Shown here: positions 42,278 through 62,306 of the stretch, in pieces
Layout: every line of letters begins with the position of its first letter
Numbering within the stretch: position 1 is the stretch's first letter
DNA from: Zobellia roscoffensis
Lineage (GTDB): Bacteria; Bacteroidota; Bacteroidia; Flavobacteriales; Flavobacteriaceae
Length of the DNA stretch: 64,000 nt
Direction: 5' to 3'
NCBI RefSeq assembly: GCF_015330165.1
Contig: NZ_JADDXT010000002.1
Location: forward strand, 1,812,663 to 1,876,662
Notes under the pieces: model-generated
What the model was told of the DNA's origin: nothing
The model's input: the letters and a program-made list of their open reading frames with translations, nothing else
The model's database searches: none
Program-made: the position numbers and the translations under genes

Positions 42278-43291
42278 ATGTCTTTACTCCAGATAATCCA
42301 TCGACTAAAAGAAGTAAATAGCTTGACCAAGCACGAACAATTGGTGCATGGTGTTATAGAAGCTTTGGATTCTGGGGAGCTTTTGGTTGGTGATAAATTA
42401 CCATCAATAAATAAAATGGTATCAGATATTGGCTATGCTAGAAAGACCATAGTTAAGGCTTATGAGGAGTTAAAAGAGAGAGGGCTGGTAGAGTCTAAAA
42501 AATTAAAAGGGTACTTTATTATAAGTGATGAGACTAAAGTGACGTTGAGGATAGCCTTGCTTTTATTTTCTTTTCAACGTTTCCAAGAAGACTTTTATAA
42601 CTCTTTCAGAAAAGAACTAGGAAATAAGTATCAGATAGATGTTTTTTTTCATCACAACAACATTTCGATTTTTGAGACCATTTTCAATAATATTCGAGGT
42701 AAATATGGAATGTATGTGGTAGCTCCAATTCCAGATAAGGTAATTAGGCCTCTTCTTTTGACGATCGAACCTCAAAAGTTACTGATAGTTGACCGGTATT
42801 TGCCAATGCCAGATGAGTATTCGTATATAGCTCAGGAATTTGAGGCAACCACATTTGATAAGTTAATAGAGTTGCTTCCAGAAATTAGAAAATATAAGAA
42901 GCTAGTTCTTTTTTATGCTGAAAATAGAGACTACCCACGTGGAATTTTATTGGCCTTCCATAGGTTCATTGCTGATTATGGTATAAATGGAGTTGTGTTA
43001 GAGGATTATGTTGAAGGTTCTCTTGAAAAAGAATCCATTTACTTTTTCATTAATGACGCTTCTCTTTGGGAATTACTTAAGGACTGCCATAATTCTAATT
43101 TGGAAGTGGGCGAAGATGTGGGGGTGCTATCTCATAATGACCACATAATTAAAGAAATTGCCTTTGGAGGTATTACTACAATCTCTACGGATTTTAAAGA
43201 TATGGCTACAATGGCTGCCCAACACATTAAAAATAACATGGTTTCTCAGACCATTGTTACTTCAAAACTGTTTAAGCGTAACTCTTTGTGA
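42278..43291 (+). CDS. GntR-family winged-HTH transcriptional regulator with a periplasmic-binding-protein-like sugar/effector domain. Likely regulator of the downstream SusCD locus.
   Basis: GntR-type wHTH (LPSINKMVSDIGYARKTIVKAYEELKERGLV). The C-terminal domain resembles LacI/PBP type I. Confidence 0.65.
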   Translation: MSLLQIIHRLKEVNSLTKHEQLVHGVIEALDSGELLVGDKLPSINKMVSDIGYARKTIVKAYEELKERGLVESKKLKGYFIISDETKVTLRIALLLFSFQRFQEDFYNSFRKELGNKYQIDVFFHHNNISIFETIFNNIRGKYGMYVVAPIPDKVIRPLLLTIEPQKLLIVDRYLPMPDEYSYIAQEFEATTFDKLIELLPEIRKYKKLVLFYAENRDYPRGILLAFHRFIADYGINGVVLEDYVEGSLEKESIYFFINDASLWELLKDCHNSNLEVGEDVGVLSHNDHIIKEIAFGGITTISTDFKDMATMAAQHIKNNMVSQTIVTSKLFKRNSL

Positions 43292-43614: not shown

Positions 43615-43669
43615 GTGTGGTGAAAACAAAAATACTAACTCAATTTATTACTAACTTAAACTACTCATT

Positions 43670-46600
43670 ATGAACCAGAACTTTAAGAGATTAAATAGAG
43701 TTCGATCACATGGTTTTGTGCTCGCAGCTTTGTTTTTCTTCAGTGTTGCATCTTTGTGCGCACAAACCACAATTTCAGGTACTACTTCTGACGACCAGGG
43801 CGTATTGCCTGGCGTAAACGTATTGGTGAAAGGTACTACCGTTGGAAGCGTTTCGGATTTTGATGGAAATTACAGTATAGAGGTGCCGGAAGGCAGCTCT
43901 GCTTTGGTCTTCTCCTATGTGGGGTATTCCAAACAAGAAGTGGCTATAGATGGCCGCACAACAATTAATGTTACTTTGGCCGAAGATGCACAGGCACTTA
44001 GCGAAGTAGTTGTCGTTGGGTACGGTACCCAACGAAAAGCAGATTTAACAGGTGCTGTTGGATCTATTAGTTCTGCGGATATTGTTTCCAAACCTATTAC
44101 TAGCCCTGATCAAGCGTTGGCGGGTACTATTTCTGGGGTAAATATTACAAATCGTAGTGGTGATCCAGGTGCCCCTATTAGTGTGTTGATTAGAGGTGTA
44201 GGTACTGCGGGAAATACAGACCCATTATGGGTAATTGATGGTATTCCTATTGTACAGACAACCAATATAACTGTAAACACCTCTTCTACTACAGATTCTA
44301 ACCCATTAGCTGGTTTAAATGCTAATGATATTGAATCTATAGATGTTTTAAAGGATGCTGCCTCAACGGCAATTTATGGGTCTAGAGCTGCAAACGGTGT
44401 TATTATCGTTACGACCAAAAGAGGAAAGAGCGGAGACGCTAAGGTAACTTATAACGGTTATGTTTCAACTTCTACGGCTAGAGATAGAATAGATGTTCTA
44501 GATGTAGAGCAGTTTATTGATATTCAAGGTCAATTAGGTAGGGACCTTTCAGAGTTTTCTGGAAGCCCATATGTTGATTGGCAAGATTTAATTTTTCAAA
44601 CAGGATTCATTCAAAACCACAATGTAAGTGTTAGTGGTGGAAATGATAAGGCCAAATATTTTATTTCCGGAGGATTGTTAGATCAGGATGGTATTGAATT
44701 AGCTCAAGGTTTTAAAAGGTATTCTTTGAAAGCTAATTCAGAAATTAACGTTGGTAAATATTTAAAATTTGGTGAATCCATTCTTTTAAGTCAAACGGAT
44801 AGACAAGTGCAAAGTGAACAAGGTATTTATGCAGGTTTTAATTCTGCATTGAATGCACCATATTACCAGCCTTATGGTAATGGAGCTTTTGGTTATAATG
44901 ATTCTACTCCGGAAACTAGGGGTAACGGTATAACAGCGAACAACTACCTGTTTAATACCGATGATAGATACACAACCACAAATTTACAGACACGCAAAAT
45001 CTTAGCTAGTTTCTACGGGGAATTACAGATTTTAGACGGGTTAAGATTTAGACCTTCTTTAGGTATAGATTACAACGTGGGTGTTGGTGATTATTTTACA
45101 TCTGATGCCGTTCTGAATAATTCTACTGGGTCATCTCTTTTGGTTTCTTCCAGACCTATTGAATTAACGTTAACATCAGCTGCTACTTTGCAGTACGATA
45201 AGACTTTTGGCGATCATAATATAGGAGCATTGTTCGGTTTTGAGCAAACAAAATTTAGATTTGACAAGTTACGTGTACAAGGTAGAAGTTTATTTAATGA
45301 GAACTTTGCATCAACCGGAGAGGTTGGCACGGTAGGGGCGGCCAATGAGGCGGATTTATGGACCTTACAAGGATGGTTGGGTAGACTCACCTATAACTAT
45401 CAAGGAAAATATTTAGCTACATTTAATATTCGACGTGATGCAACTTCAAGATTTTCTCCTGATAACAGAACAGATGTGTTTCCTTCTGTATCTTTAGGTT
45501 GGAGAGTTTCAGATGAGGAATTTTTTCCAAAGGATGGAGCTTTTGATGATTTAAAGATTCGTGCAGGATGGGGTCAGTCTGGTAACCAGGCCTCGCCAAC
45601 GAATTTCCCATATTTAAGTGCTGTAGATAGTAATATAAGATATGTGATCGGTGATGATCAGGGGACAGTTACAGCTCCTGCACCTACCACTTTTGCCAAT
45701 CAAGATTTGTTTTGGGAAACGAGTACTCAATTTGATGTAGGTCTTGATTTTAGTTTATTCAATTACAAGTTGACCGGTAGCTTTGATTATTACAATAAAG
45801 TTAATGACGGCGTTCTTATCGGGTTACCATTACCATACGTTTCTGGCTTTTTCTTAGCTCCTGATGCTAATATCGGTTCTATTAAAAACTCTGGACTTGA
45901 ATTATCACTTAACTACGCAGGTGAAGCTGGGGATTTTACATATTCTATTGGTGGTAATTTCACAACAAACAATAATGAGGTTACTGATTTAGGAGAGGTT
46001 ACTCAAATCATAACAGGAATTGGAGGTGCAAGTACGCACAGAACTATAGAAGGTGAAAGCCTTGGCCATTTTTATGGCTATAAGACTGATGGTTTGTATC
46101 AAAATGATGCTGAGGTTGCGGCTGCCGTACCAGATGCTAACGGAACGCCTTCTCCTGGAGACATACGTTTTGTAGATGTAAATGGTGATGGTATTGTTGA
46201 CGCTGATGATAGAACTGAACTAGGAAGTCCTTTTCCTGGATTCTACTACGGTATGAATTTTAATGCAGCATATAAAGGGTTTGATTTCTCAATCAATTTT
46301 AGAGGGGTAGGAAACAAGCAAGTTTATAATTCTGCTAGAATAGCATTGGAAGATTTAAGTTCTGGTAACAACTTTAGTACGCAGGTTTTAGACCGGTGGA
46401 CGGGTGAAGGAACTGCTACTTCTAGTTCAAATCCAAGATTGACGTTGAACGATCCTAACGGGAACAACAGATATTCAGATAGATGGATTGAAGATGCAGG
46501 TTATTTAAGAATTCAGAATGCACAAATAGGCTATAACCTTCCTCAAGATTTATTAACTTCTTGGACAAACGATATGATTTCTAATTTTAGAATTTATGTT

Positions 46601-46768
46601 GGTGCTCAAAACTTAGCAACATTTACTAAGTATTCTGGTTATGATCCAGAAGTTGGTAGAACGCAGAGTTTTCAAAAGGGTGAGTTTACATTGGCTACAG
46701 GTCAAGATGGTGGAGCTTCACCAACACCTAGAATCTTTCAGTTAGGGTTATCCGTAACGTTCAATTAA
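43670..46768 (+). CDS. susC: SusC/RagA-type TonB-dependent outer-membrane transporter.
   Basis: Signal peptide, CarbopepD-like domain (ISGTTSDDQGVLPGVNVLVKGTTVGSVSDFDGNYSI), plug with the SusC-specific segment, a 1032 aa barrel and a C-terminal ...SVTFN. Confidence 0.95.
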   Translation: MNQNFKRLNRVRSHGFVLAALFFFSVASLCAQTTISGTTSDDQGVLPGVNVLVKGTTVGSVSDFDGNYSIEVPEGSSALVFSYVGYSKQEVAIDGRTTINVTLAEDAQALSEVVVVGYGTQRKADLTGAVGSISSADIVSKPITSPDQALAGTISGVNITNRSGDPGAPISVLIRGVGTAGNTDPLWVIDGIPIVQTTNITVNTSSTTDSNPLAGLNANDIESIDVLKDAASTAIYGSRAANGVIIVTTKRGKSGDAKVTYNGYVSTSTARDRIDVLDVEQFIDIQGQLGRDLSEFSGSPYVDWQDLIFQTGFIQNHNVSVSGGNDKAKYFISGGLLDQDGIELAQGFKRYSLKANSEINVGKYLKFGESILLSQTDRQVQSEQGIYAGFNSALNAPYYQPYGNGAFGYNDSTPETRGNGITANNYLFNTDDRYTTTNLQTRKILASFYGELQILDGLRFRPSLGIDYNVGVGDYFTSDAVLNNSTGSSLLVSSRPIELTLTSAATLQYDKTFGDHNIGALFGFEQTKFRFDKLRVQGRSLFNENFASTGEVGTVGAANEADLWTLQGWLGRLTYNYQGKYLATFNIRRDATSRFSPDNRTDVFPSVSLGWRVSDEEFFPKDGAFDDLKIRAGWGQSGNQASPTNFPYLSAVDSNIRYVIGDDQGTVTAPAPTTFANQDLFWETSTQFDVGLDFSLFNYKLTGSFDYYNKVNDGVLIGLPLPYVSGFFLAPDANIGSIKNSGLELSLNYAGEAGDFTYSIGGNFTTNNNEVTDLGEVTQIITGIGGASTHRTIEGESLGHFYGYKTDGLYQNDAEVAAAVPDANGTPSPGDIRFVDVNGDGIVDADDRTELGSPFPGFYYGMNFNAAYKGFDFSINFRGVGNKQVYNSARIALEDLSSGNNFSTQVLDRWTGEGTATSSSNPRLTLNDPNGNNRYSDRWIEDAGYLRIQNAQIGYNLPQDLLTSWTNDMISNFRIYVGAQNLATFTKYSGYDPEVGRTQSFQKGEFTLATGQDGGASPTPRIFQLGLSVTFN

Positions 46769-46790
46769 GTTTAAAAAATTATAAAATATT

Positions 46791-48317
46791 ATGAAAAAAA
46801 TAATTGTATTTTTTGCATGTGCATCACTGTTAGGAGTTCTCTCCTGTGGTGACCAGCTAGACCTTGAGCCTCTGGACCGTGTGACTACGGATCAGTTTTA
46901 CAAAACAAGAACGGATTTTGATGGAGCTGTTTTTGCTTCCTATTCATCTATCCAAGATTTTTGGGGAACTAGTACTGAGACGTTGGGTGAAAGAGGTGAG
47001 TTTTGGAAAATCTCCTTGGCAATAACCGATGATGTAGCAGCCGATGAAGTAAACGGAACTTCTTCTAGAGATATAGATAACCTCTTACTTCGTTCTAATG
47101 ATGTTCCTTTCGGAGCAGTTTACACTCAGATTTATGAAGGTATATATAGAGCAAATATTGTACTTGAAAATCTTGAAAAAGAGAATGAGTTAACTGCAGA
47201 AGATAAGACCATAATTAATGCCGAAGCTAAATTTTTAAGAGCTTGGTTTCATTTTCAGGCTATGAAGATGTTTGGTACGCCACCTTTAGCCCTAGATATT
47301 AGAACAGATATTAATGATCAGGCCAGACCAAATGCAACACAAGAAGAATTATATGCCGCAATATTGGCAGATTTGGCTGAAGCTGAGGCAGGTCTTCCTG
47401 CTGATTGGGATGGCTCTAATACAGGTAGAGTTACCTTATGGACTGCTAAAGCGTATATTGGTAAAGTAAATGTTTGGAAAGAAGATTGGCCAACAGCTAT
47501 TACGGCACTAGAAGAGGTTGTTAATTCGGGACCTTATGTTTTGGTTCCAGACTATGAGCAGTTATTTGCTTACACGAATGAGAATAATTCAGAATCTATT
47601 TTTGAAATCCAGTATGGTGGTCCGTTTTCTGATGATAACCTTTGGGTTTTTGATGATACACACTCAGAAGATTTTAAAGCTTCTCAAGGAACGGCGCGAG
47701 GAAATTATTGGGATGCAGGTGGTGATGCACCGGGCGGAAAACAAGGTCAGTGGGTTCCTACTCAAGATTTAGTGGATGCTTATGAGGCAGGTGATGAAAG
47801 ATTAGCGGTTACTGTATATCAAGATGGTGATATGTATTATTCTTTTGATGGAACGCGTTATGAAATTCCTTATGATCCTGCTTGGTCTTCGTCAGGGTAT
47901 ACTTTGAAGAAGTATAGAGGAACTTTAAATGCTGTAGTAGGTAACTCTTCTGCTAACGGACAAGTAGATTTTAACAATGAGCGTTGGTTTAGATTTGCAG
48001 AAGCTAAATTACTTTATGCGGAAGCTTTGATTCAAGGTGGAGGTGATGTTGGACTTGCTTTTGACGAAATAGATGATATTCGTGATAGAGCTGGTCTAGG
48101 TCTTGTTGACCGTTCGTTAGACCCTATGGACGCGTTAATGCAGGAAAAAAGAGTAGAGCTGGCCTTAGAACCACACAGGTACTTTGATATTACTAGATGG
48201 GGAATTGGAGCTGAGATTTTTGGAGCTGCTTGGGACGATAAATACAATGTATTTCCGTTTCCACTTACAGAAATTGATAGGTCTAAAGGTTTGCTAATCC
48301 AGAACTCAGGATATTAA
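46791..48317 (+). CDS. susD: SusD/RagB-family surface glycan-binding lipoprotein.
   Basis: Lipobox LSCGD. TPR-like SusD fold with WF..R/EL motifs. Immediately downstream of SusC. Confidence 0.9.
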   Translation: MKKIIVFFACASLLGVLSCGDQLDLEPLDRVTTDQFYKTRTDFDGAVFASYSSIQDFWGTSTETLGERGEFWKISLAITDDVAADEVNGTSSRDIDNLLLRSNDVPFGAVYTQIYEGIYRANIVLENLEKENELTAEDKTIINAEAKFLRAWFHFQAMKMFGTPPLALDIRTDINDQARPNATQEELYAAILADLAEAEAGLPADWDGSNTGRVTLWTAKAYIGKVNVWKEDWPTAITALEEVVNSGPYVLVPDYEQLFAYTNENNSESIFEIQYGGPFSDDNLWVFDDTHSEDFKASQGTARGNYWDAGGDAPGGKQGQWVPTQDLVDAYEAGDERLAVTVYQDGDMYYSFDGTRYEIPYDPAWSSSGYTLKKYRGTLNAVVGNSSANGQVDFNNERWFRFAEAKLLYAEALIQGGGDVGLAFDEIDDIRDRAGLGLVDRSLDPMDALMQEKRVELALEPHRYFDITRWGIGAEIFGAAWDDKYNVFPFPLTEIDRSKGLLIQNSGY

Positions 48318-48432
48318 TAATCTTCTTTTAGGGTTTCCCTAAAAAGTATAGTAATTTTACTGAAAGGAATCCAATTTTGAATAACCCCTAGATTGGATTC
48401 CTTTCTATTTATAGACGTTTTTAATTTCTTTC

Positions 48433-51400: not shown

Positions 51401-51969
51401 TTGCTAATTCGTATCTTGAGAATTTGGGAAATGGAAAATTCAGGCTTTCAGAATTGCCAAGAGCTGCCCAAATTGCGCCTATGTATGGCATGATGGTTGG
51501 CGATTATAATAATGATCAAAATTTAGATGTTTTGGCAGTTGGTAATTTCTACAGTGGGGAAGTGTTTTCAGGCAGGTATGATGCCGCTATAGGATGGTTG
51601 TTGCTTGGTGATGGTATAGGAGGTTTTAGTAAAGCCGATGTCTCTCAAAGCGGATTTTTCGTAGATGGGGATGCAAAAAGCCTAGTTAGCTTAAATGCTG
51701 GTGATAGAGAATTACTTATAGCGGGAATGAATAATGCCGGTTTAAAAAGCTTTTATCGACCTATAAAAAATAGAATTTATAAACCGAAGCCCAATGAGGT
51801 ATCAGCTTTGGTCACTTTTGATAATGGAACGAAACAAAAAGTAGAATTCCATTATGGGGCGGGTTATCTTTCAAGCTCAAGCCGAAATTTTAATGTTCCA
51901 GATTCTGCAGTTTCCCTAAAGGTTATAGATGTAAATGGTGTTGAAACTGAAATCTTGAAAAAACCATGA
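48433..51969 (+). CDS. Lipoprotein with two FG-GAP-type (integrin alpha-like) 7-bladed beta-propellers plus ASPIC/UnbV domains (CRTAC1 family).
   Basis: Lipobox ILSCS. Fourteen Ca-binding DxDxDGxxD loops (for example DFDLDGLQD, DINQDGFPD, DYDGDGDLD, DLDNDGDLD, DVNGDGLED, DYDKDGDLD). UnbV_ASPIC-like segments lie after each propeller. Confidence 0.8.
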   Translation: MFATYKISLFYYSLFSCVVLCILSCSKNEKTLFKEITSSESGLTFQNKLNLTDTLTILDFEYMYNGAGVAVADFDLDGLQDVYFTGNMVSNRLYRNQGNFKFEDITESANVGSTHWSNGVAIVDINQDGFPDIYVCRAGPRNAKSENKANLLFVNNGLKDGKLSFTEEAQKWGLADTSYSVQSVFFDYDGDGDLDMYLLNNALVDFNRNTAKPKEGREKVPSVDKLFRNDSGENEAGNPVFTDVSAESGISIEGYGLGIEVCDMNSDGWPDIYVSNDFLTDDLLYINQKNGTFKNEIASYFKHLTFNGMGNDIADINNDGNMDVVVLDMLPPDNKRWKLTMMGNNYDQFRNRLDYGYQPQYIRNTLQLNNGNGSFSEVGQLAGIDATEWSWSALFADFDQDGLNDLCITNGYRQDITNLDFMVYGDRVLTMGTAEANRKKRIEELNKLPGIKENNYFFKNTGNLTFEDASTEVGFDKPTYSNGMAYADLDNDGDLDLVMNNIDDPAGLFENTLSSEENRYIRFKFKGSEKNKQALGSKVEIFYGGSVQKKYFTPYRGYLSTVEQALHFGVGQSKELDSIKVIWPDGKTQNLQGVAVNQELVLQYENAVEGKQTKKSETLKTWLQPIDSIGLNRLHVENEFVDFKVQALLPHMHSKNGPGMAVADVNGDGLEDLYVGGATGQAGAILLQKVDGSFITSEFEEMKNEDMGALFFDVDNDGDQDLYVVSGGSSYQVGDKAYQDRLYENDGLGNFTQTNALPNMLVSGSVVTAADYDKDGDLDLFVGGRIRPGEYPLSPESFLLKNNGTGTGIKFVKDEQSANLDLTNLGMVTSALWTDFNNDGWEDLIVVGEFMAARFFQNNKGELSDVTEITGLSHTNGWWNSITSGDFDKDGDTDYVLGNLGLNSKFKASTKEPLCVYASDYDKNGQIDPVMCHYVDGENYVAHSRNDLISQVNAMRSRFRTFSDYADATFEESFLKEEIEQAHVVRSETFANSYLENLGNGKFRLSELPRAAQIAPMYGMMVGDYNNDQNLDVLAVGNFYSGEVFSGRYDAAIGWLLLGDGIGGFSKADVSQSGFFVDGDAKSLVSLNAGDRELLIAGMNNAGLKSFYRPIKNRIYKPKPNEVSALVTFDNGTKQKVEFHYGAGYLSSSSRNFNVPDSAVSLKVIDVNGVETEILKKP

Positions 51970-54900
51970 AAATGTTGAAACCTTTAATATTTGTGTTGGG
52001 TCTCACATTTCTATTTGTGGGTTGTGGTGAGAAAGAAACGCATCGTTTCAGGTTGCTTGATGCGTCAAAAACGGGCATCGATTTTCAAAATACGATTACG
52101 GAAAACGATAGCATTAATGTTTTTGAATTCATGAATGTGTATACCGGTGCTGGTGTTGCGGTAGGAGATATTGATAATGATGGCCTCACGGATGTGTATT
52201 TTAGCGGGAACATGGTTTCAGGTAGGTTGTATCGGAATAAAGGAAATTTTCAGTTTGAGGATATTACTGAAAAATCAGGACTGCTCAATACCCGTTGGGG
52301 AACAGGGGTAAGTATGGTAGATATTAACCAAGATGGATTTTTAGATATTTATGTGTGCGTTTCAGGAAGTGCAGAGGTTTCCGAGCGAGCCAATATGCTT
52401 TATATTAATAACGGTGATATGACCTTTACCGAAATGGCCGAGGAGTATGGTCTTGCGGATACGCGGCAAAGCATGCATGCTGCTTTTATGGATTACGATA
52501 AGGATGGCGATTTGGATATGTATCTTTTGGTAAACCCTGCGGCATACGAATACAATGTAAATGTGAGCAAACCACGTGAAGTAGAAGGGCAATCTGTCAG
52601 TAATGACCGCTTATATGAAAACATGGGTAACGGTAAGTTTCAGGATATTTCCGATAAAGCAGGAATTGTACTGGAGGGCTATGGACTTGGTGTAGGCATC
52701 TCAGACATTAATGGTGATAACTGGCCGGATATTTATGTATCCAATGATTTTATTGGGAATGATATTCTCTATATCAACCAAAAAGATGGCACGTTCAAAG
52801 ACCAGATTACAGAGCAAATAAAGCATACCTCATATGCGGGAATGGGTAACGATGTTGCAGATGTGGATAATAATGGTGAGCCCGATATTATGGTATTGGA
52901 TATGCGCCCAGAAGATAATGAACGTCAAAAATTGATTATTTCCTCAACGGGTTATGACCGTTTTCAAATTATGTTAGATGCAGGTTACAATGCACAATAC
53001 AGTCGCAATACGCTGCAGTTAAACCAAGGCCGGGATAAGTTTAGTGAAGTAGGTTTTATGGCAGGCATTAGTAGTACGGATTGGAGTTGGAGCCCGTTAT
53101 TAGCAGATTATGATAATGATGGCCGTAAAGATTTATACGTTACCAATGGTTTTTTAAGGGATTTGGGAGATTTAGATTATATCCATTATCAGAAGGCCTA
53201 TGATAATCCCGTAGGTGATGTGGATACAAAAATCCAAATGAAATTGAAATCCATAAGTGAACTGCCCATGGCAGATTTACCAAACTACGCCTATCGTAAT
53301 AAAGGGGATATGACTTTTGAAAAAGTTTCCGATAGTTGGGGGATTGATAAAGCCAGTTGTTCCCATGGTGCGGCATATGCCGATCTGGATAATGATGGGG
53401 ATTTGGATTTACTGGTGAACAATATGGATCAACCTGCTTTTGTATATGAAAACGTGGGCCTTCCAGAGAAAAAAAATCACTATTTAAAAATTAAGCTGAA
53501 AGGTGAAAAAGGCAATCTTCAAGGGATAGGAGCAAAATTGAAGCTGACAACCACAGATTCGGAACAATTTTACCAACATTATTTGAGTCGGGGATATGAG
53601 TCTAGCGTAGATCCTACAGTACATTTTGGTTTGGGTAAATCCAAAGAGATAGAGAGTATTGAGGTTTGGTGGCCAAACGGTACATATCAGATTTTGAATA
53701 ATCAGGCAGTAGATACGGTCTTGGTGTTGCAACAGTCAAATGCAACCAAAGATATTCCACAGAAAAAAGAATTTAAAAAACAATTTTTCTCTGATGTAAC
53801 GGATAGTTTAGGTGTAAGCTTTAAGCATCAAGAAGACGACTTCGTAGATTTTAAACTACAGCCTATTTTACCGCACATGCATTCACGAAACGGACCAGGT
53901 TTAGCTGTTTCGGATGTAAATGGAGATGGCTTGGAAGATTTTTATATTGGCGGAGCAATTGGTCAACCAGGAGAATTACTTTTACAAAAAACTGACGGAA
54001 GTTTTGTTTCAAAGGAAGGTTTTGATGCCGATTTTGAGGACCTGGGTGTCCTATTGTTTGATGCTAATGGTGATGGGTATAATGACCTCTATGTGGTTAG
54101 TGGTGGTGTAAGTGCAAGTGTTGATGCTGGAAAATTTCAAGATAGGCTATACGTGAATGATGGTAAAGGTGGTTTTATGTTGTCTGATGCTTTGCCTGCC
54201 ATTAGTGCAAGTGGATCGTGCGTAGTTGCTAATGATTATGACAAAGATGGAGACCTGGATTTGTTTGTAGGGGGTAGGGTTAATCCTGGTAAATATCCAA
54301 TGCCTGCACAAAGTTATTTGCTCGAAAACCAATCATCCGGTAGTGATTTCAAGTTCGTTGATGCGAGCAATACAATAGAAGGTTGGAAAGAATTGACTAT
54401 GGTTACTTCTGCTTTATGGACAGATTATGATAATGATGGGTGGACAGACCTTATTGCGGTAGGTGAATTTATGCCTATCAGTATTTTTCATAACGAAAAA
54501 GGAAAGCTTGTTCTGCAAAAGGAAGGCACTGGATTAACAAAAACTGAAGGTTGGTGGAACAGCATTAACGGAGGAGATTTTGACCAAGATGGCGATGTAG
54601 ATTATATTCTTGGTAACCTTGGTCTTAACAGTAAGTACACTGTTACTGCAGATGAGCCACTTTGTATCTATGCTAAGGATTATGATAAAGACGGTCGGGT
54701 AGACCCTATAATGTGTTATTTTATTAATGGTGAAAACCATTTAGCGCATTCGCGTGATGAGATTATTGGTCAGGTTAATGCCATGCGGAGCAGATTTAAA
54801 ACCTATAAATCATATGCCGAAACTAATTTTGAAAAATCATTTTTGCAGGAAGAATTGAAAGACGCTTATGTGGTAAAGAGTTATACTTTCTCAAGTAGTT

Positions 54901-55475
54901 ATGTAGAAAATCAAGGGAATGGAAAATTTAAACTCCATGAGCTTCCATTGGAATTGCAAACAGCACCTATTCAGGGTGTGGTGGTCAGTGATTTTAATGA
55001 AGATGGAAATCTAGATGTGCTCATGACGGGTAACTCGTATGCTACAGAAGCGGCAACAGGACGTTATGATGCATTTGTTGGGGCTTTCTTAAAAGGAAAC
55101 GGTAAAGGTTCTTTTGAAAATATTTCTATAGCTGAAAGCGGGTTTTTAAGTGATTGGGATGCGAGTGGTTTGGCTTTGATTCATATGGGTGACGGAAGAC
55201 AAAATATATTGGCGGCAAATAATGATAATCAACTAAAAATATTTCAGCAGACAGAACTCGGAAATGGAAAGGTGATTAATGTAGGGGCAAATGCACTTTC
55301 GGCTGTTATTAAATTAAAGAACGGGCAGAAATACAAGAAGGAGTTTTACTTTGGTTCGGGATATTTATCTCAAAGTAGCAGAAGTATTGGCTTAAATAAG
55401 AATATTAGAGAGATTGAGGTTATAGATAAAAATGGAAATACAAAAACAGTGTATTTAGATGAAGCAGTTAAGTAG
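51966..55475 (+). CDS. Paralogous FG-GAP / ASPIC-UnbV (CRTAC1 family) lipoprotein. Tandem duplicate of the preceding gene.
   Basis: Lipobox LFVGCG. Same domain order and DxDxDG loops, collinear with 48433..51969 along the whole length. Its start ATGA overlaps the upstream stop. Confidence 0.8.
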   Translation: MKMLKPLIFVLGLTFLFVGCGEKETHRFRLLDASKTGIDFQNTITENDSINVFEFMNVYTGAGVAVGDIDNDGLTDVYFSGNMVSGRLYRNKGNFQFEDITEKSGLLNTRWGTGVSMVDINQDGFLDIYVCVSGSAEVSERANMLYINNGDMTFTEMAEEYGLADTRQSMHAAFMDYDKDGDLDMYLLVNPAAYEYNVNVSKPREVEGQSVSNDRLYENMGNGKFQDISDKAGIVLEGYGLGVGISDINGDNWPDIYVSNDFIGNDILYINQKDGTFKDQITEQIKHTSYAGMGNDVADVDNNGEPDIMVLDMRPEDNERQKLIISSTGYDRFQIMLDAGYNAQYSRNTLQLNQGRDKFSEVGFMAGISSTDWSWSPLLADYDNDGRKDLYVTNGFLRDLGDLDYIHYQKAYDNPVGDVDTKIQMKLKSISELPMADLPNYAYRNKGDMTFEKVSDSWGIDKASCSHGAAYADLDNDGDLDLLVNNMDQPAFVYENVGLPEKKNHYLKIKLKGEKGNLQGIGAKLKLTTTDSEQFYQHYLSRGYESSVDPTVHFGLGKSKEIESIEVWWPNGTYQILNNQAVDTVLVLQQSNATKDIPQKKEFKKQFFSDVTDSLGVSFKHQEDDFVDFKLQPILPHMHSRNGPGLAVSDVNGDGLEDFYIGGAIGQPGELLLQKTDGSFVSKEGFDADFEDLGVLLFDANGDGYNDLYVVSGGVSASVDAGKFQDRLYVNDGKGGFMLSDALPAISASGSCVVANDYDKDGDLDLFVGGRVNPGKYPMPAQSYLLENQSSGSDFKFVDASNTIEGWKELTMVTSALWTDYDNDGWTDLIAVGEFMPISIFHNEKGKLVLQKEGTGLTKTEGWWNSINGGDFDQDGDVDYILGNLGLNSKYTVTADEPLCIYAKDYDKDGRVDPIMCYFINGENHLAHSRDEIIGQVNAMRSRFKTYKSYAETNFEKSFLQEELKDAYVVKSYTFSSSYVENQGNGKFKLHELPLELQTAPIQGVVVSDFNEDGNLDVLMTGNSYATEAATGRYDAFVGAFLKGNGKGSFENISIAESGFLSDWDASGLALIHMGDGRQNILAANNDNQLKIFQQTELGNGKVINVGANALSAVIKLKNGQKYKKEFYFGSGYLSQSSRSIGLNKNIREIEVIDKNGNTKTVYLDEAVK

Positions 55476-56781
55476 TATACTCATATTATGTTTGGTTTTA
55501 TTGGTGTCCTGTGGCACCAAGCACAATCAAGAAGGGCTAGATGCTTATTTTGAAGGAGGTTTATCAAACTATAATCGTCAGCTTACAAATGTTATAGTTG
55601 CTGATATTTTTACCCCGCCAGTAGCAAGTAGAATTTATGCGTATTCCAACGTGGCCGCCTATGAGGGTATTCGTTTTGCAGATGCATCAAAGGAGTCTTT
55701 AGTGTCTAAGTTGAATGATTTAGATAAATTATCAGAACCGGAAGCTGGTAAAAAATATTATTACCCATTGGTTTCTGCGGTGGCTTTCATGAATGTGGGT
55801 AAAGCCTTGGTGTTTGATTTGGATAAAGTGGAAGCTATTAAGAGTAGTATGTTGACCGAAGTTAAGGATATCGGTATTGACGAAGCAGTTTACCAAAATT
55901 CAGTATCCTTTGGAGAAAAATTGGCAACTGAAATCTTGAGTTGGGCAGCAAAAGATGGATACTTGCGCCGTACTGCGCTTCCTAGATATTCGGTAAGTGA
56001 TGATGCGGGTCGTTGGAGGCCAACCCCTCCAGATTATATGGAGGCCATAGAGCCACATTGGAACACCATTAGACCCTTTGTTTTAGAATCTGCTGGACAA
56101 TTTGATCCTGGACTTCCTACTGCTTTTAATATTGAAAAAGATTCTAAGTTTTATGAGGAAGCTGTTGAGGTGTATGAAACCGTAAATAAATTAGATGATA
56201 AGCAATTGGAGGTCGCCAAGTTTTGGGACTGTAATCCTAATATATCTCATACCAAGGGGCATGTCATGTATTTTCAGCAGCAAATATCACCCGGAGGACA
56301 TTGGATGCACATTGCAGCACAAGTATTGGAAGAAGAAAAAGCTGATGGCGTAACAGCTGCTGAAACCATGTCTTTGTTAGGAGTGACAATTGCAGATGCA
56401 TTTATCAGTTGTTGGGATCAGAAGTATAAGAGTAGTTTAACCAGGCCAGAAACGTATATCAATAATTACATAGACCAAGATTGGGAGCCTATTCTTCAAA
56501 CACCGGCTTTTCCTGAGCATACATCAGGACACAGTGTGGCTTCTAGTGCCGCAGCAACGGCCTTAACGGAGTTGTTTGGTGAGAACTATGCTTTTGTGGA
56601 TGCAACCGAAGTTCCATACGGTCTTCCTCCAAGAAGTTTTCAGTCGTTTTGGCAAGCTGCAGAAGAAGCAGCTATTAGTCGCTTATATGGAGGAATACAC
56701 TATAGACCTGCTATTGAACTTGGCGTTGCGCAGGGAAAGGCAGTAGGAGGGTTTGTTATAAAACGCCTTAAGTCTGACTAA
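55459..56781 (+). CDS. PAP2-superfamily lipoprotein of the vanadium-dependent haloperoxidase / acid-phosphatase type.
   Basis: Lipobox LLVSCG. All three PAP2 motifs are present: K-x6-RP (KYKSSLTRP), PSGH-like (PEHTSGHS) and SR-x5-H-x3-D-like (SRLYGGIHYRPAIE). Overlaps the upstream gene by 17 nt. Confidence 0.7.
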   Translation: MKQLSSILILCLVLLVSCGTKHNQEGLDAYFEGGLSNYNRQLTNVIVADIFTPPVASRIYAYSNVAAYEGIRFADASKESLVSKLNDLDKLSEPEAGKKYYYPLVSAVAFMNVGKALVFDLDKVEAIKSSMLTEVKDIGIDEAVYQNSVSFGEKLATEILSWAAKDGYLRRTALPRYSVSDDAGRWRPTPPDYMEAIEPHWNTIRPFVLESAGQFDPGLPTAFNIEKDSKFYEEAVEVYETVNKLDDKQLEVAKFWDCNPNISHTKGHVMYFQQQISPGGHWMHIAAQVLEEEKADGVTAAETMSLLGVTIADAFISCWDQKYKSSLTRPETYINNYIDQDWEPILQTPAFPEHTSGHSVASSAAATALTELFGENYAFVDATEVPYGLPPRSFQSFWQAAEEAAISRLYGGIHYRPAIELGVAQGKAVGGFVIKRLKSD

Positions 56782-57262
56782 GGGTTCAAGCTAAAAGTTA
56801 TTGAGCGAAAGGATATGTTTTTGAGTCTAAGTATATTTTGGATAGTTGGCTGTCTTTTTAGATGAAGTATGTAGAAGGTTTACTAAAAATGAAAGATATT
56901 TCTTATGTTTTTATTAAATAATGGGTATATTTCGATGTGTTTTTGTCGAAAGAATATTTTTCTCTTAAATAAGATTCTAAGTAGGTTTTTAAAAAACGAA
57001 TATTTCTATTCATTTGAAATAATGGTTGGTCTGTAAATCAGAGTTTTAGATAATGATAGCGATAAGTTTTTTTGGAGACCTTTAGAATACACTGTATATT
57101 TGAATAGTAGCATAGAATATCATAGTATAATAAAAAACAATTATATCTTGTTTTCCTATCATGAATGGAAGAAGGTTTTAGTTTTAAAGAATACTTTATT
57201 GCTCAATAGAAAATGATAATACCATCAGTTGTTAATTAATTTCCTCCCAATAAAAAAATCAG

Positions 57263-59032
57263 ATGATTGTAAACACTACCCTAACAGCAACCTCCGACAT
57301 AACGATTATCGGTGCAGAGCAAAATTTCCAAACGTCACTTAAAAAAGTACATGATCATGAAGGTACAGTGGTCTATGATTTTGAAGTAGCAGGAGATGAG
57401 AAACAGATACCGAAACCTATAACGCTACAATGGAAGGTTCCTGCGATTAATGTAAAGGGAGTTTGGAAGCCTACAACAGATTTTAACAAACGTATTCAGG
57501 CAGATTGGGAGTTAGATAATATGGAATCTAGAATTTCTATTGATTCTCCTGTGATTTCCCTTTTTGGTAATAGTGATGAGAATATTTTAACTTTTGCTTG
57601 TTCCAATGCCATTAATAAATTAGAAATGAATGCGCGTTTGCGTGAGGAGGACAATTGTTTTTATTGCTATATCACTTTTTTTATGGAACAACATTACCCT
57701 CTTAAAAATTTCAAAGCACAGATAAGACTTGATCATCAAAATCAGCATTTTTCTGATAGTCTCCGTGCCGTATCTTCTTGGTGGGAAACTTTTGAGCAGT
57801 TAAAACCAGCTTATGTTCCGGATATCGCTAAAAAACCATTGTATTCTACCTGGTATCAATTTCATCAAAACTTAGAAATACCACTACTTTTAGAGGAATG
57901 TAGATTGGCCAAGGATTTAGGTTACGAGGCAATTATTATTGATGACGGTTGGCAGACATTTGACTCTAATAGAGGGTATGATTTTACTGGAGATTGGCAG
58001 CCGGACCGTATTCCTGAAATGGCGGAATTCGTAAAAAGTGTGCATGAAACAGGAATGAAAGTAGCCCTTTGGTATTCCGTTCCGTTTTGTGGTGAAAAAT
58101 CAAAAGCTTTCAAACGTTTTAAAGGGAAATTCTTGACGGAAGACCATAGATGGGCACCAGTTTTTGATCCGCGCTACCCAGATGTACGACAATATTTAAT
58201 CGATATTTATTCAAGTGCTGCTAAAGACTGGAATCTAGATGGCTTTAAACTCGATTTTATAGACGATTTTAGATTTTATAAAGACACACCTACGAAATTA
58301 GGAGCAGATGCGGATTACGCTTCTATTAACGGTGCGGTTGACCGTTTGTTAACAGACGTAAAAAATGCTTTAACAGAAATAAACCCCGAAATCTTTATTG
58401 AGTTCAGACAAAAATATACTGGACCGGCAATGCGTAAGTATGGCAATATGTTCCGGGCTTTTGATTGCCCGGGAGATGCCACTATGAACCGTTTGCGAAT
58501 TGCAGATATACGTATGCTTGCGGGTAACACAGCAGTGCATTCTGATATGGTTACCTGGCATGAAGATGAACCTTTGGAAATTGCAGCACTTCAGGTAATC
58601 AACACGCTTTTTGGGGTTCCTCAACTGTCAATTATGTTGAGTGAAACTCCTAAAGAGTATGTAAATATGATTGGGTTTTATACTAAATATTGGAATGAAA
58701 ATGCCGATGTTCTTATGAACGGTGATTTTCTTCCTTCTAAACCTCTTGCCAACTATCCCACGAAGCGAGTTTCTAAAAATGGGCAAGTCATTATTGGAGT
58801 ATATGATACTTGGATTATTGAACTTAACGAAGCACATAATTTAGTCGATATCTTAAATGCACAGATAGCGAATCAGGTTGTTATCAGAAATACGAAAGAC
58901 TTAGGAGCGTATCGTTGTAAAATTTATGATTGCCAAGGAAGTTTGATACGGGAAGATAATGTAGTATTTTCGAAAGGCGTACTTGAAATTGAGGTTCCCG
59001 CTTGTGGAATCATCAAAGCCGAGAAAATATAA
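57263..59032 (+). CDS. Cytoplasmic glycoside hydrolase, GH36-like (clan GH-D alpha-galactosidase family).
   Basis: IIIDDGWQ....GDW...IPEMAEFVKSVHETGMKVALWYSVP closely tracks the GH36 catalytic-domain consensus (DDGWF...GDW...vH..GMKFGLW). Candidate nucleophile in FKLDFID (the KWD equivalent). No signal peptide. Confidence 0.6.
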   Translation: MIVNTTLTATSDITIIGAEQNFQTSLKKVHDHEGTVVYDFEVAGDEKQIPKPITLQWKVPAINVKGVWKPTTDFNKRIQADWELDNMESRISIDSPVISLFGNSDENILTFACSNAINKLEMNARLREEDNCFYCYITFFMEQHYPLKNFKAQIRLDHQNQHFSDSLRAVSSWWETFEQLKPAYVPDIAKKPLYSTWYQFHQNLEIPLLLEECRLAKDLGYEAIIIDDGWQTFDSNRGYDFTGDWQPDRIPEMAEFVKSVHETGMKVALWYSVPFCGEKSKAFKRFKGKFLTEDHRWAPVFDPRYPDVRQYLIDIYSSAAKDWNLDGFKLDFIDDFRFYKDTPTKLGADADYASINGAVDRLLTDVKNALTEINPEIFIEFRQKYTGPAMRKYGNMFRAFDCPGDATMNRLRIADIRMLAGNTAVHSDMVTWHEDEPLEIAALQVINTLFGVPQLSIMLSETPKEYVNMIGFYTKYWNENADVLMNGDFLPSKPLANYPTKRVSKNGQVIIGVYDTWIIELNEAHNLVDILNAQIANQVVIRNTKDLGAYRCKIYDCQGSLIREDNVVFSKGVLEIEVPACGIIKAEKI

Positions 59033-59042
59033 CGAACTTCAA

Positions 59043-59603
59043 ATGACCGAAAAAGAGAAAATGATTGGTGGAAAACCTTATAACCCTCATGATAAGGAGT
59101 TGGTTAGAGGTAGGTTGAACGCAAGAAGACTAATGCGTGAAATTGAAGCCATACCCATGGATAAGGAACGGCAACGTAAACATTTTTTCAAAGAGTTATT
59201 TGCTGAGACCGGTAAAAATTTTTACATAGAGAATCGTTTTACTTGCGATTATGGCTTCAATATTTATTGGGGGGAAAACTCATACGCTAATTTTGATTGT
59301 ATTATTTTGGATGCAGCGCCAGTTTACATTGGTAAGAATGTTATGATAGCTCCTGCGGTAAAACTTCTTACGGCAACGCATCCTCTTGAATTTGAAGCAC
59401 GCAATTCCGGCATTGAATACGCAAAACCTATAAGAATAGGTGATAACGTTTGGATTGGCGGCGGGGTAATCGTTAATCCAGGGGTTACAATAGGAAATAA
59501 CAGTGTTATAGGTTCTGGTAGTGTTGTGGTAAAAGACATTCCTGAAAATGTAGTAGCTGTTGGTAATCCGTGTCGCGTACTAAAGAAAATTGATAACTCA
59601 TAA
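59043..59603 (+). CDS. maa: Maltose/galactoside O-acetyltransferase (Maa/LacA family, left-handed beta-helix).
   Basis: ORF 58983..59603. The ATG at 59043 gives MTEKEKMIGGKPYNP, the Maa N-terminus. Hexapeptide repeats (IGDNVWIGGGVIVNPGVTIGNNSVIGSGSVV). Confidence 0.85.
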   Translation: MTEKEKMIGGKPYNPHDKELVRGRLNARRLMREIEAIPMDKERQRKHFFKELFAETGKNFYIENRFTCDYGFNIYWGENSYANFDCIILDAAPVYIGKNVMIAPAVKLLTATHPLEFEARNSGIEYAKPIRIGDNVWIGGGVIVNPGVTIGNNSVIGSGSVVVKDIPENVVAVGNPCRVLKKIDNS

Positions 59604-59648
59604 TTATAGCTCTTCACTCTCTCAACACCAACTTAAAACACTAAAAAT

Positions 59649-61298
59649 ATGCTCTCAATAGTTTCATTTGTAGGTTTTACGCTCTTAGTTGCGCTAATTG
59701 CGTGGTACGCTACACGAAGTACCAATGAAAAGTCTGCTGATGGCTATTTTTTAGCAGGTAGGAGTTTAGGAGCAATCACTATAGCGGGTTCATTACTCTT
59801 AACTAACCTTTCAGCTGAACAGATTGTCGGCCTTAACGGGCAGGCGTTTACGGAAGGTGTACTGGTAATGGCTTGGGAGACATTGGCGGCTATTGCTATG
59901 ATTATTACCGCTGTATTTCTGCTTCCAAGGTATATGAGAGGCGGTATAACAACTATTCCGCAATTTGTGGCAGATAGGTTTGATCATGGAACAAAAGCTA
60001 TTCTAACGGCGCTGTTTTTATCTGGTTATGTTATTGTGGTAATTCCATCCGTACTGTATTCAGGTTCATTGGCATTCAGTACCATGTTTGATTTACCTAG
60101 CCTTCTTGGACTTTCAGATACAGCCACTCTATGGATTTGCGTTTGGAGTATTGGTATCATTGGAATTATATATGCAATTTTTGGAGGATTAAAAGCAGTT
60201 GCGGTCTCTGACCTTATCAATTCTATAGGACTTTTAATTGGTGGACTTCTTATTCCGGTTTTTGGACTGTTGGCTATTGGAGATGGAAGTATTTCTGATG
60301 GGGTGAGTATACTTTGGGAGAGTCATCCAGAGAAATTCAACGTTAAAGGAGATGTAGATGCTTCTATTCCCTTTGGAACGATTTTTACAGGAATGATGTT
60401 GGTGCAGATGTTCTATTGGGGAACGAACCAAGTTATTTTGCAACGTGTTTTTGGAGCTAAGAATCTAAAGGAAGGTCAAAAAGGGGTGATTCTTGCCGCT
60501 TTAGTGAAGTTTTTAATACCCATAATAGTAGTGTTACCAGGTATTATTGCATGGCATATTTTTGAAGGTAACCTTGATAATCCAGATCAAGCCTATCCTA
60601 AATTAGTAGCAACGGTACTTCCTGCGGCATTTACAGGTCTTTTTGCGGCTGTACTTTTTGGTGCTATTCTTAGCTCTTTTAATAGTTTATTGAATAGTAG
60701 CGCCACTTTATTTGGTTTTGACCTTTATCGTCAATATTTCAAAAAGAATGCCACAGAGCTTGAAACCGTAAAAGCGGGTAAGATGTTTGGTCTTGTTCTG
60801 GGTATCCTAGGTATGTGTGTGGCTCCTTTAATAGCGAATGCTCCCCAAGGTTTGTTTGCGTGGTTGCAGGAGGCCAATGGTTGTTATAGTATTCCTATTT
60901 TAACGGTAATTGTTATTGGTTTCTTTACCAAGCGTGTGCCGGCCATAGCGGCGAAAATTGGTGTGATTTCAGGTGTTGTGCTGTATTCTATTAGTCAGTT
61001 TATCATTAAGCCTTATTTTGTAGATAATGCACTTACCGAGGCTGCACAAAATGGAATAACAGATGCCAAGGCTTTAAGTGTGATTCAGGCCGAGGCTTAT
61101 CCTCACTTTTTACACGTAATGGCTATTTTATTCGCCTTGAATATTATTATCATGTTGGTTATAGGTAAACTTCACCCAAGAGAAACAGATTACCAACCTA
61201 TGACAACAGATGCTGTAAGTGTGGAGCCATGGAAATATGCTTTTATAGCAGGAGCAGCTATTACAGCTTTAGTTTTAAGTACGTATTTGATATTCTAA
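59649..61298 (+). CDS. Sodium:solute symporter (SSS family, SGLT-like sugar transporter).
   Basis: About 14 TM helices. GYFLAGRSLG N-terminal motif and SSS signature regions. Confidence 0.88.
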   Translation: MLSIVSFVGFTLLVALIAWYATRSTNEKSADGYFLAGRSLGAITIAGSLLLTNLSAEQIVGLNGQAFTEGVLVMAWETLAAIAMIITAVFLLPRYMRGGITTIPQFVADRFDHGTKAILTALFLSGYVIVVIPSVLYSGSLAFSTMFDLPSLLGLSDTATLWICVWSIGIIGIIYAIFGGLKAVAVSDLINSIGLLIGGLLIPVFGLLAIGDGSISDGVSILWESHPEKFNVKGDVDASIPFGTIFTGMMLVQMFYWGTNQVILQRVFGAKNLKEGQKGVILAALVKFLIPIIVVLPGIIAWHIFEGNLDNPDQAYPKLVATVLPAAFTGLFAAVLFGAILSSFNSLLNSSATLFGFDLYRQYFKKNATELETVKAGKMFGLVLGILGMCVAPLIANAPQGLFAWLQEANGCYSIPILTVIVIGFFTKRVPAIAAKIGVISGVVLYSISQFIIKPYFVDNALTEAAQNGITDAKALSVIQAEAYPHFLHVMAILFALNIIIMLVIGKLHPRETDYQPMTTDAVSVEPWKYAFIAGAAITALVLSTYLIF

Positions 61299-61309
61299 AA
61301 GAAATACCT

Positions 61310-62143
61310 TTAAAATTGTAGAACAACGCCTAAAGTACCAGGCCCAAAGTTGAGGTTCCAACTCATCTTCTTGGCTTGGTCGTTGTATTTTTCATCGTAT
61401 TTTTTGTCTAAATAACGGTCAATAGACTCTACTGTTGCTATACTAATCGCAACTGCGAATACAAAATCGCTCAAATAGTGCTGACCATCCCAAATACGGG
61501 AAATACCAGGTATAGCACCTAGGGTATAAACACCTGCTTTTATCCACGGACTTTTAAATTGCTTACCAATAGCATAGGCATTGGTAAATGCCAATAATGC
61601 GTGCCCAGATGGAAAAGAATGATAATTTCGGTTGGAATTGAAAGGGTCAAACGTATCTTTTCCTTTTTCTGCAACAGGTCTTGCCCTACCTACAGCAGAT
61701 TTTAAAACTTGTTGTAAAAAGCCTGAAGAAGTTGCAGATGCGATCAATAAAACTCCTGTGCGGCGAAGTTTCTCGTTTTTTGTAATAAGTCCCGCCAAAT
61801 ACACACCTGAAGTTGCTAAGTAATTATTTTCCGGACTCCCGTAAAGTTCACCATACTCACGAATAACATGTGGTACACTTTCTTTTTGTCTTTGTATAAA
61901 CTCAGAGGTTTGCTCATCAAAAAGATAAACAGCCCCGGTGCCAGCCACAACACCACCTAGTTGAGCCCATTGTTGTCCTTTCCAGTGAAACGGTCTGGCG
62001 TAGGAATATCCTACACCCTTAAACATATTCACAAAATCATATTTAAACATGTCCCATCTTTTTTCGGTAGGTGCTACAAGAGAGTCTTGTGCGTACGTGC
62101 CAATTGTAAAGCAAACAAAGAGTAGGGCTATGGTCTTTTTCAT
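61310..62143 (-). CDS. Secreted PAP2-family phosphatase.
   Basis: ORF 61310..62353. The start is trimmed to the ATG at 62143 (MKKTIALLFVCFTIGTYAQ signal peptide) to remove the overlap with the upstream HDAC gene. Motifs [15 protein letters not shown] and SRIWDGQHYLSD. Confidence 0.75.
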   Translation of the reverse strand: MKKTIALLFVCFTIGTYAQDSLVAPTEKRWDMFKYDFVNMFKGVGYSYARPFHWKGQQWAQLGGVVAGTGAVYLFDEQTSEFIQRQKESVPHVIREYGELYGSPENNYLATSGVYLAGLITKNEKLRRTGVLLIASATSSGFLQQVLKSAVGRARPVAEKGKDTFDPFNSNRNYHSFPSGHALLAFTNAYAIGKQFKSPWIKAGVYTLGAIPGISRIWDGQHYLSDFVFAVAISIATVESIDRYLDKKYDEKYNDQAKKMSWNLNFGPGTLGVVLQF

Positions 62144-62306
62144 AATAAGTGCAAAACTAGATTTATTCTGTAAAGCTTCAAGGTTTAAAGACAAAAAAAT
62201 AGAATTTGTTGGTTGTTCTAGTGAATAGGGGGTTGTTCCTGTTAATTTACGAAATAAATGAATAGAGTTGTAGATAACAGGATTAATGAAAAAGGAGAAC
62301 TCTGTT

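Follow-up and report, generated by a model that had tools for sequence, protein, structure and literature searches.

An open reading frame (ORF) at positions 55459-56781 of a 64,000-nucleotide stretch of the Zobellia roscoffensis genome (contig NZ_JADDXT010000002.1; hereafter, the window) very probably encodes a lipid-anchored, monomeric vanadium haloperoxidase of the Zg-VIPO type. As judged from sequence and predicted structure, the protein is the ortholog of Zg-VIPO2 (ZGAL_2088) of Zobellia galactanivorans and would be active in the cell envelope, next to an uptake system encoded by the genes that precede its own. The enzyme itself is already known: its database annotation is correct, the ortholog and a paralog have been characterised, and the gene order has been annotated in the model strain of this well-studied, alga-associated genus. 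The value of the locus lies not in the enzyme but in a genomic rule of marine Bacteroidota, in which the haloperoxidase gene is nearly always partnered by propeller genes directly upstream, joined in the VIPO2 lineage by SusC and SusD genes (SusCD) and by a sugar-type regulator. Bacterial vanadium iodoperoxidases have been proposed to serve in the accumulation of iodine, in protection from the oxidative bursts of algae, or in the production of halocarbons, and the haloperoxidase-propeller(-SusCD) linkage provides a genetically tractable hypothesis for the physiological role of these enzymes. No description or functional study of such a module was found in a search of the searchable papers.

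The ORF, which lies on the forward strand, begins with ATG and specifies 440 amino acids, the coordinates including the stop codon. Its product is 100% identical to the NCBI record "vanadium-dependent haloperoxidase [Zobellia roscoffensis]" and matches PDB entry 4cit_A over its full length (query residues 7-437; E 2.5e-135), with 47% identity to Zg-VIPO1 (ZGAL_1262; 4CIT/4USZ), the first bacterial vanadium iodoperoxidase to be crystallised. A Z. galactanivorans protein, P0004, is 81% identical over the full length and is encoded in a locus with the ZGAL_2083-2090 gene order; the window protein is therefore the ortholog of ZGAL_2088 (Zg-VIPO2). The two share an identical neighbourhood, from the GntR regulator through the haloperoxidase to the (trans)glycosidase-like protein, the acetyltransferase, and a sodium:solute symporter family (SSF) protein, and agree in their lipoprotein N-terminus and in the residues specific to the clade, Asn261 and His354; they differ in the species of origin and by 19% sequence divergence. 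The Pfam PAP2 model scored 44.5 bits on the ORF product, above its cut-off of 27.2 bits, and the precomputed domains of the NCBI record are PF22778 (VCPO_2nd) and PF01569. The protein thus has the architecture of two helical bundles, an N-terminal VCPO_2nd-type domain followed by a C-terminal PAP2-like bundle. Its AlphaFold2 model is all-helical (predicted local distance difference test [pLDDT] 82.9; predicted template modelling score [pTM] 0.85) and was matched by Foldseek to 4usz/4cit with template modelling (TM) scores of 0.80-0.85 and E values of about 1e-29 to 1e-30, followed by NapH1, the Curvularia chloroperoxidase, XhnO11, and NapH3 at approximately 1e-8 and TM scores of about 0.6. A family profile searched against all PDB sequences recovered 4cit at 5.8e-202, 9l8x at 3e-4, NapH1 at 0.009, and the Corallina bromoperoxidase and Curvularia chloroperoxidase at 0.03-0.05; the best acid phosphatase (7f18) came at E = 2.

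Zg-VIPO1 shares with the window protein the monomeric two-bundle fold, the conserved vanadate-site residues, the lipoprotein nature, and a gene position directly downstream of FG-GAP/UnbV_ASPIC genes, but belongs to a paralogous lineage. The chloroperoxidase of Curvularia inaequalis (1VNC/1IDQ) and NapH1 of Streptomyces (3W35/3W36) are alike in fold class and vanadate-binding residue set. However, they are 13-16% identical to the window protein and 90-170 residues longer, and their halide range is chloride; NapH1 is a dimeric biosynthetic enzyme, and neither is a lipoprotein or encoded in a SusCD locus.

The original prediction had assigned to this ORF all three motifs shared by acid phosphatases and vanadium haloperoxidases. 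The corresponding strings, KYKSSLTRP, PEHTSGHS, and SRLYGGIHYRPA, are present, and they are not chance matches because they are set inside full-length homology to a solved vanadium iodoperoxidase. The third, however, does not have the proposed form SR-x5-H-x3-D: it ends in Ala418 instead of the phosphatase Asp. Conservation was read from two alignments, one of 18 homologues and the other of 28 homologues across both paralogous lineages, the latter showing Ala418 to be invariant. Residues K322, R329, S356, G357, H358, R408, and H414 were invariant in both, so that no catalytic His or Arg was lost on alignment, and they map one to one onto K324, R331, S358, G359, H360, R410, and H416 of Zg-VIPO1. 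The Zg-VIPO1 numbering is consistent both with the chain in 4CIT, at an offset of 8, and with P0121, the Z. galactanivorans protein identical to it. The second-shell residues Trp319, Asp320, and Phe351 were also invariant and Cys318 nearly so in the two alignments, and all four are conserved in Zg-VIPO1. His414, the predicted vanadate ligand, aligns with His416 of Zg-VIPO1, the counterpart of the vanadate-ligating His496 of the Curvularia enzyme (CiVCPO). By homology with these two enzymes, vanadate would sit atop the C-terminal bundle of helices, ligated directly by His414 and hydrogen-bonded by Lys322, Arg329, Ser356, Gly357, and Arg408. Binding of H2O2, with help from His358 as the distal catalytic His, would yield a peroxo-vanadate that oxidises halide, most probably iodide only, to hypoiodous acid (HOI), I2, or I3-.

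Two positions near the active site separate the lineages. Asn261 is found in all 16 VIPO2-clade proteins and His354 in 15 of the 16, whereas the 12 VIPO1-type proteins invariably carry Tyr263 and Tyr356 at the equivalent sites; Tyr263 is reportedly among the residues mutated in the Zg-VIPO1 study. Because these sites are fixed differently, VIPO1 is not a safe guide to which halides the VIPO2-lineage enzymes oxidise. The same substitutions speak for a haloperoxidase-fold protein that is non-halogenating, like NapH3 with its rearrangement, or that has a broader halide range including bromide, and that would perform an oxidative or isomerising transformation of a propeller-held substrate. Non-halogenating homologs with the same fold do exist (8cxl, NapH3), and the strict coupling to propellers suggests a dedicated macromolecular partner. 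Nevertheless, the residues for vanadate binding and peroxide activation are all invariant, identity to NapH3 and NapH1 is just 13-14%, and a review lists the ortholog, Zg-VIPO2, among active iodoperoxidases, all of which makes this alternative improbable. In the study of Zg-VIPO1 and Zg-VIPO2, two of the three Zobellia enzymes were reportedly expressed and found to be strictly iodide-specific. Zg-VIPO2 appears in a review table as monomeric and iodide-specific by the thymol-blue assay (PMC8407142), and one paper refers to "three vanadium-iodoperoxidases" with homologs in all Zobellia. Of the two chemistries that had been proposed for the window protein, halide oxidation is the one supported by membership in the Zg-VIPO family and by orthology to the iodide-specific Zg-VIPO2.

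The other chemistry, in which a PAP2-type acid phosphatase dephosphorylates a phosphorylated glycan or organophosphate in the envelope before uptake and vanadate has no physiological role, is the least probable reading. Class A acid phosphatases (PhoN, PhoC, and those of E. blattae and P. aeruginosa) share K-x6-RP, SGH, SR-x5-H, and the helical core of the C-terminal half with the window protein, whose Lys/Arg/Ser-Gly-His/Arg/His constellation is common to phosphatases and which passes the PAP2 threshold. Furthermore, 3bb0 is the apo-form of a vanadium chloroperoxidase with a phosphate intermediate trapped in a dephosphorylation reaction and, since the apo-chloroperoxidase forms this phospho-intermediate, phosphatase may be a side activity of the haloperoxidase. 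Against it as a primary function, class A enzymes are half the size (approximately 210-230 amino acids, compared with the 440-residue, PF22778-containing, two-bundle protein that superimposes on 4cit/4usz) and are devoid of the N-terminal bundle. Foldseek matches to acid phosphatases cover the C-terminal half only (query-normalised TM score [TMq] 0.26-0.34; E>=3e-3), in line with the profile result. The Asp that follows the nucleophilic His in class A enzymes is replaced by the invariant Ala418, but is kept by a canonical PAP2 phosphatase encoded nearby in the window. The closest characterised relatives are iodoperoxidases. Some close relatives are recorded as 'phosphatase PAP2 family protein' or 'phosphatidic acid phosphatase', but such names are automatic and have been applied even to the record identical to Zg-VIPO1, the crystallised iodoperoxidase.

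Returning to the vanadium haloperoxidase, its N-terminus (MKQLSSILILCLVLLVSC) carries the lipobox LVSC with Cys18, a residue invariant in the 28 homologues. Lipoproteins of flavobacteria are exported to the surface by a signal of the type K-(D/E)2, or similar, after the lipobox Cys. The residues that follow Cys18 (GTKHNQE) are weakly acidic and without a K-(D/E)2 run, and VIPO2-type proteins, the window copy included, display a conserved K/P-H-N/D-x-E in this region (window residues 19-30). Most VIPO1-type homologues, in contrast, have a K-(K)-E-E run 2-6 residues past the lipidated Cys, as does Zg-VIPO1 with its K-E-E type motif. The protein had been predicted to be a surface lipoprotein; the lipoprotein part of that claim is supported, but the sequence does not show the surface part. 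Judging from these N-terminal sequences, proteins of the two lineages may be oriented to opposite faces of the outer membrane.

The gene stands, as originally proposed, downstream of SusD and propeller genes: SusC, SusD, and two propeller genes precede it on the same strand (Table 1). Packing is operon-like, with 22 nucleotides between SusC and SusD, 115 between SusD and the first propeller gene, and overlaps of 4 nucleotides between the propeller genes and 17 between the second of them and the haloperoxidase gene. The N-terminus of the first propeller protein carries a lipobox (...LSCS). In the propeller proteins, numerous Asp, Asn, and Gly columns are invariant and grouped in the manner of calcium-binding loops, as at D473, D475, D477, G478, and D479 of the first. 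A PDB search with a profile built from 13 homologues returned as solved relatives only human CRTAC1 (9etn, 5e-25) and, marginally, integrin alpha; from these comparisons, the propellers look like large ligand-binding proteins. We also considered whether they might be unrecognised enzymes, either a polysaccharide lyase or an oxidase that produces H2O2, an idea rejected because the profile matched no enzyme in the PDB, although sequence-only methods could miss one.

This arrangement recurs far beyond Zobellia. We retrieved 80 loci from distinct species genomes and searched them with the window proteins, the counts being made on the 68 with at least 7.5 kb of upstream sequence. In 59/68 species loci, an FG-GAP/ASPIC gene on the same strand ends no more than 400 nucleotides before the haloperoxidase gene; two tandem propeller genes lie upstream in 55, SusD in 57, and SusC, on the same strand, in 55. 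The module occurs in Flavobacteriaceae (Zobellia, Maribacter, Flagellimonas, Arenibacter, Ulvibacterium, and others), Cyclobacteriaceae, Saprospiraceae, and Cytophagales, with identities between haloperoxidases reaching as low as about 55%. A few Cyclobacteriaceae have a rearranged order (propeller downstream, SusCD inverted), but the genes remain linked. Halide oxidation or dephosphorylation next to SusCD had been regarded as uncommon, a view that does not hold for this lineage, in which the SusC-SusD-propeller-propeller-haloperoxidase order is conserved across many marine Bacteroidota species. A homologue of the regulator (64-69% identity) adjoins the module in several other species, where it is often convergent and past the haloperoxidase gene.

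The propeller genes, unlike SusCD, also accompany the paralogous lineage. The Zg-VIPO1 gene (encoding P0121, 100% identical to 4CIT) directly follows three propeller genes (locus L085, 3-11353), and its homologue in Maribacter algarum directly follows two (locus L086, 3377-11350), in both cases without SusCD. A sodium:solute symporter gene lies near both of these VIPO1-type clusters. The pairing of haloperoxidase and propeller in both lineages implies that it predates their split and, given that VIPO1 loci have propellers but no SusCD, the constant partner is the propeller, SusCD having been added in the VIPO2 lineage. The rule is limited to the VIPO1 and VIPO2 lineages and does not extend to all haloperoxidase homologs, because the third paralog in Zobellia, ZGAL_2250 ('vIPO3'), has globin-like, catB, and ccdA genes as its neighbours and no propeller genes. 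Two small conserved genes, one of them GyrI-like, follow the VIPO1-type haloperoxidase gene.

The adjacent SusC and SusD genes are one defining feature of a SusCD-type polysaccharide utilization locus. No clear carbohydrate-active enzyme gene was found within the packed unit from SusC to the haloperoxidase, and the label 'glycan-uptake operon' given to it earlier is thus plausible but unproven. The sugar-type domain of the regulator and the downstream sugar genes, both here and in Flagellimonas (GH31, 3-keto-disaccharide hydrolase, FGE-sulfatase, and GFO/IDH/MocA), favour a carbohydrate-containing substrate, as far as gene content can tell. In the published tables of Z. galactanivorans, the equivalent genes are annotated as GntR-type regulator (ZGAL_2083), TonB-dependent receptor (2084), SusD (2085), ASPIC-UnbV proteins (2086/2087), vanadium-dependent haloperoxidase (2088), (trans)glycosidase (2089), and acetyltransferase (2090). 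Transcripts of three of them were modestly higher on Ascophyllum than on alginate, with log2 values of 1.57 (ZGAL_2084), 1.04 (ZGAL_2086), and 1.27 (ZGAL_2087). We infer that the haloperoxidase gene is co-expressed with SusCD and the two putatively calcium-binding, CRTAC1-like propellers under the GntR/periplasmic-binding-protein-type regulator, which would sense a sugar; such co-expression would place the enzyme in the envelope beside an uptake machine for a probably carbohydrate-containing algal substrate. At this site it would use up H2O2 in oxidising iodide, which is plentiful on the surfaces of brown algae. Candidate purposes are modification of the imported substrate by HOI, iodine accumulation, and detoxification of H2O2 (with iodide) at algal surfaces.

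Several observations weigh against parts of this account. The difference from the crystallised enzyme at Asn261/His354, close to the predicted active site, means that halide specificity may differ as well. The iodide specificity of the ortholog is taken from the review table and from what the study reportedly found, and the same table wrongly gives PDB 4USZ to Zg-VIPO2: 4usz and 4cit have identical sequences in the PDB set, 100% identical to the VIPO1-type P0121, and there is therefore apparently no structure from the VIPO2 lineage. The envelope face of the enzyme may be either the surface or the periplasmic one. As for expression, ZGAL_2084-2088 were not significant in arrays of Z. galactanivorans on agar, porphyran, laminarin, alginate, and kappa/iota-carrageenan, and, of this cluster, the supplementary table that lists upregulation on fresh algae contains only ZGAL_2084, 2086, and 2087, not ZGAL_2088.

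A more far-reaching proposal, which we consider doubtful, is that regulator, SusCD, propellers, and iodoperoxidase constitute a dedicated envelope machine coupling halide oxidation to the capture of substrate and its TonB-dependent uptake. One version has HOI, generated on site, modifying a glycan or phenolic complex of the algal cell wall that the propellers hold, or releasing it; in another, the module would be the long-sought genetic basis of the H2O2- and Ca2+-dependent accumulation of iodine in marine Flavobacteriaceae. The persistence of the haloperoxidase-propeller pairing in two paralogous lineages, in rearranged loci, and in several Bacteroidota families is compatible with such a coupling. 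If true, an uptake or iodine-accumulation machine of this kind would define a functional class new to SusCD loci. Iodine accumulation by the marine flavobacterium Arenibacter sp. C-21 is H2O2-dependent and needs Ca2+, and a membrane-bound glucose oxidase acting with a haloperoxidase has been proposed to account for it; the C-21 genome encodes at least five homologs of the Zobellia iodoperoxidase. Of two other Arenibacter genomes, one (locus L031), with a haloperoxidase of 70% identity, carries the whole SusCD-propeller module, and the other, represented by a short contig (L022), has only a propeller gene visible upstream of the haloperoxidase homolog. The calcium requirement of strain C-21 might fit calcium-binding propellers.

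Table 1. Predicted features of the haloperoxidase locus in the window
Feature	Position	Strand	Basis
Transcriptional regulator, GntR-type helix-turn-helix plus periplasmic-binding-protein-like (sugar-binding type) domain; equivalent of ZGAL_2083	42278..43291	+	Pfam GntR 1.1e-9, Peripla_BP_3 1e-6
SusC/RagA-type TonB-dependent outer-membrane transporter	43670..46768	+	TIGR04056 E 6.2e-266; Plug and CarbopepD_reg_2 domains
SusD-family lipoprotein	46791..48317	+	Pfam SusD_RagB 1.9e-29, SusD-like_3 3.9e-21
FG-GAP/UnbV_ASPIC (CRTAC1-like) propeller lipoprotein 1, 1178 amino acids	48433..51969	+	FG-GAP_3 1.7e-75, UnbV_ASPIC 6.5e-23
FG-GAP/UnbV_ASPIC propeller lipoprotein 2, 1169 amino acids	51966..55475	+	FG-GAP_3 8.7e-78, UnbV_ASPIC 9.4e-26
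Vanadium-dependent haloperoxidase lipoprotein, ortholog of Zg-VIPO2/ZGAL_2088	55459..56781	+	4cit_A match, 47% identity; gene order
Lipoprotein signal peptide, lipobox LVSC; Cys18 predicted to be lipidated	55459..55512	+	Read from sequence
Motif 1, KYKSSLTRP, K322-x6-R329-P330; vanadate-binding Lys and Arg by homology (Zg-VIPO1 K324, R331)	56422..56448 (residues 322-330)	+	Alignments
Motif 2, PEHTSGHS, P352-E-H-T-S356-G357-H358-S (Zg-VIPO1 S358, G359, H360)	56512..56535 (residues 352-359)	+	Alignments
Motif 3, SRLYGGIHYRPA, S407-R408-x5-H414-x3-A418 (Zg-VIPO1 R410, H416)	56677..56712 (residues 407-418)	+	Alignments
Cytoplasmic protein distantly like clan GH-D alpha-galactosidases; position of the ZGAL_2089 (trans)glycosidase	57263..59032	+	Weak GH36/GH31/GH27 matches
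Maltose O-acetyltransferase-like hexapeptide transferase; ZGAL_2090	58983..59603	+	Pfam Mac, Hexapep
Sodium:solute symporter (SSF), sugar vSGLT/SGLT type	59649..61298	+	NF007790 2.4e-222
Canonical PAP2 phosphatase with signal peptide	61310-62353	-	Motifs KSAVGRARP / PSGH / SRIWDGQHYLSD, Asp included

The left border of the module is marked by a housekeeping context, a gene for a CNNM/CBS/CorC protein (GldE-like) that overlaps gldD (gliding-motility lipoprotein; TIGR03512, 2.9e-69) at 40159-42019 on the forward strand, immediately 5′ of the regulator gene. A second TonB-dependent receptor, with a CarboxypepD_reg domain, is encoded elsewhere in the window (12719-15505, +); the gene next to it (region to 17151, +) encodes not a SusD but a 541-amino-acid protein with a weak C-terminal match to GDSL lipases. 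A scan of positions 42000-61500 for sigma-70 promoters and intrinsic terminators gave counts at or below the shuffled expectation and was uninformative because Bacteroidota promoters differ.

On the 3′ side, the haloperoxidase gene is followed by 481 intergenic nucleotides (56782-57262) with a G+C content of 26%, compared with a window mean of 37%. No convincing ORF, terminator, or repeat was seen in this interval, which probably serves the downstream unit as promoter or regulatory sequence. Given this gap, the next gene, encoding the GH-D-like protein, probably belongs to a separate transcription unit, though it is a recurrent neighbour: about 20 loci have a homologue 3′ of the haloperoxidase gene, among them distant Saprospiraceae and Cytophagales with identities of 43-52%. 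Its product has no signal peptide; the best PDB match was 3mi6 (9.3e-7), and the Pfam Melibiase match was weak and under the cut-off. The listed TTG start of the acetyltransferase ORF overlaps the GH-D-like gene by 50 nucleotides, and a 186-amino-acid gene is called at this place in locus L001; the true start is probably an internal ATG.

The presence of an SSF gene near both haloperoxidase clusters, together with the assignment of the mammalian iodide symporter to this family, had raised the idea that the SSF protein of the window could be a sodium/iodide symporter. This candidate was rejected, since the SSF protein is far closer to vSGLT (3.7e-61) and SGLT1/2 (1e-41 to 1e-34) than to the sodium/iodide symporter (1e-19) in the PDB. 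A weaker SSF match and an alpha-galactosidase-like gene are also found downstream in several distant Saprospiraceae and Cytophagales loci. Across Zobellia species, the symporter is 96-97% identical, compared with 63-95% for the adjacent module. The canonical PAP2 gene is convergent to the SSF gene, 4.5 kb from the haloperoxidase gene, and occupies the same place in Z. galactanivorans. Translation probably begins at the internal Met of MKKTIALLFVCF..., which would give a protein of approximately 277 amino acids, as called in L001.

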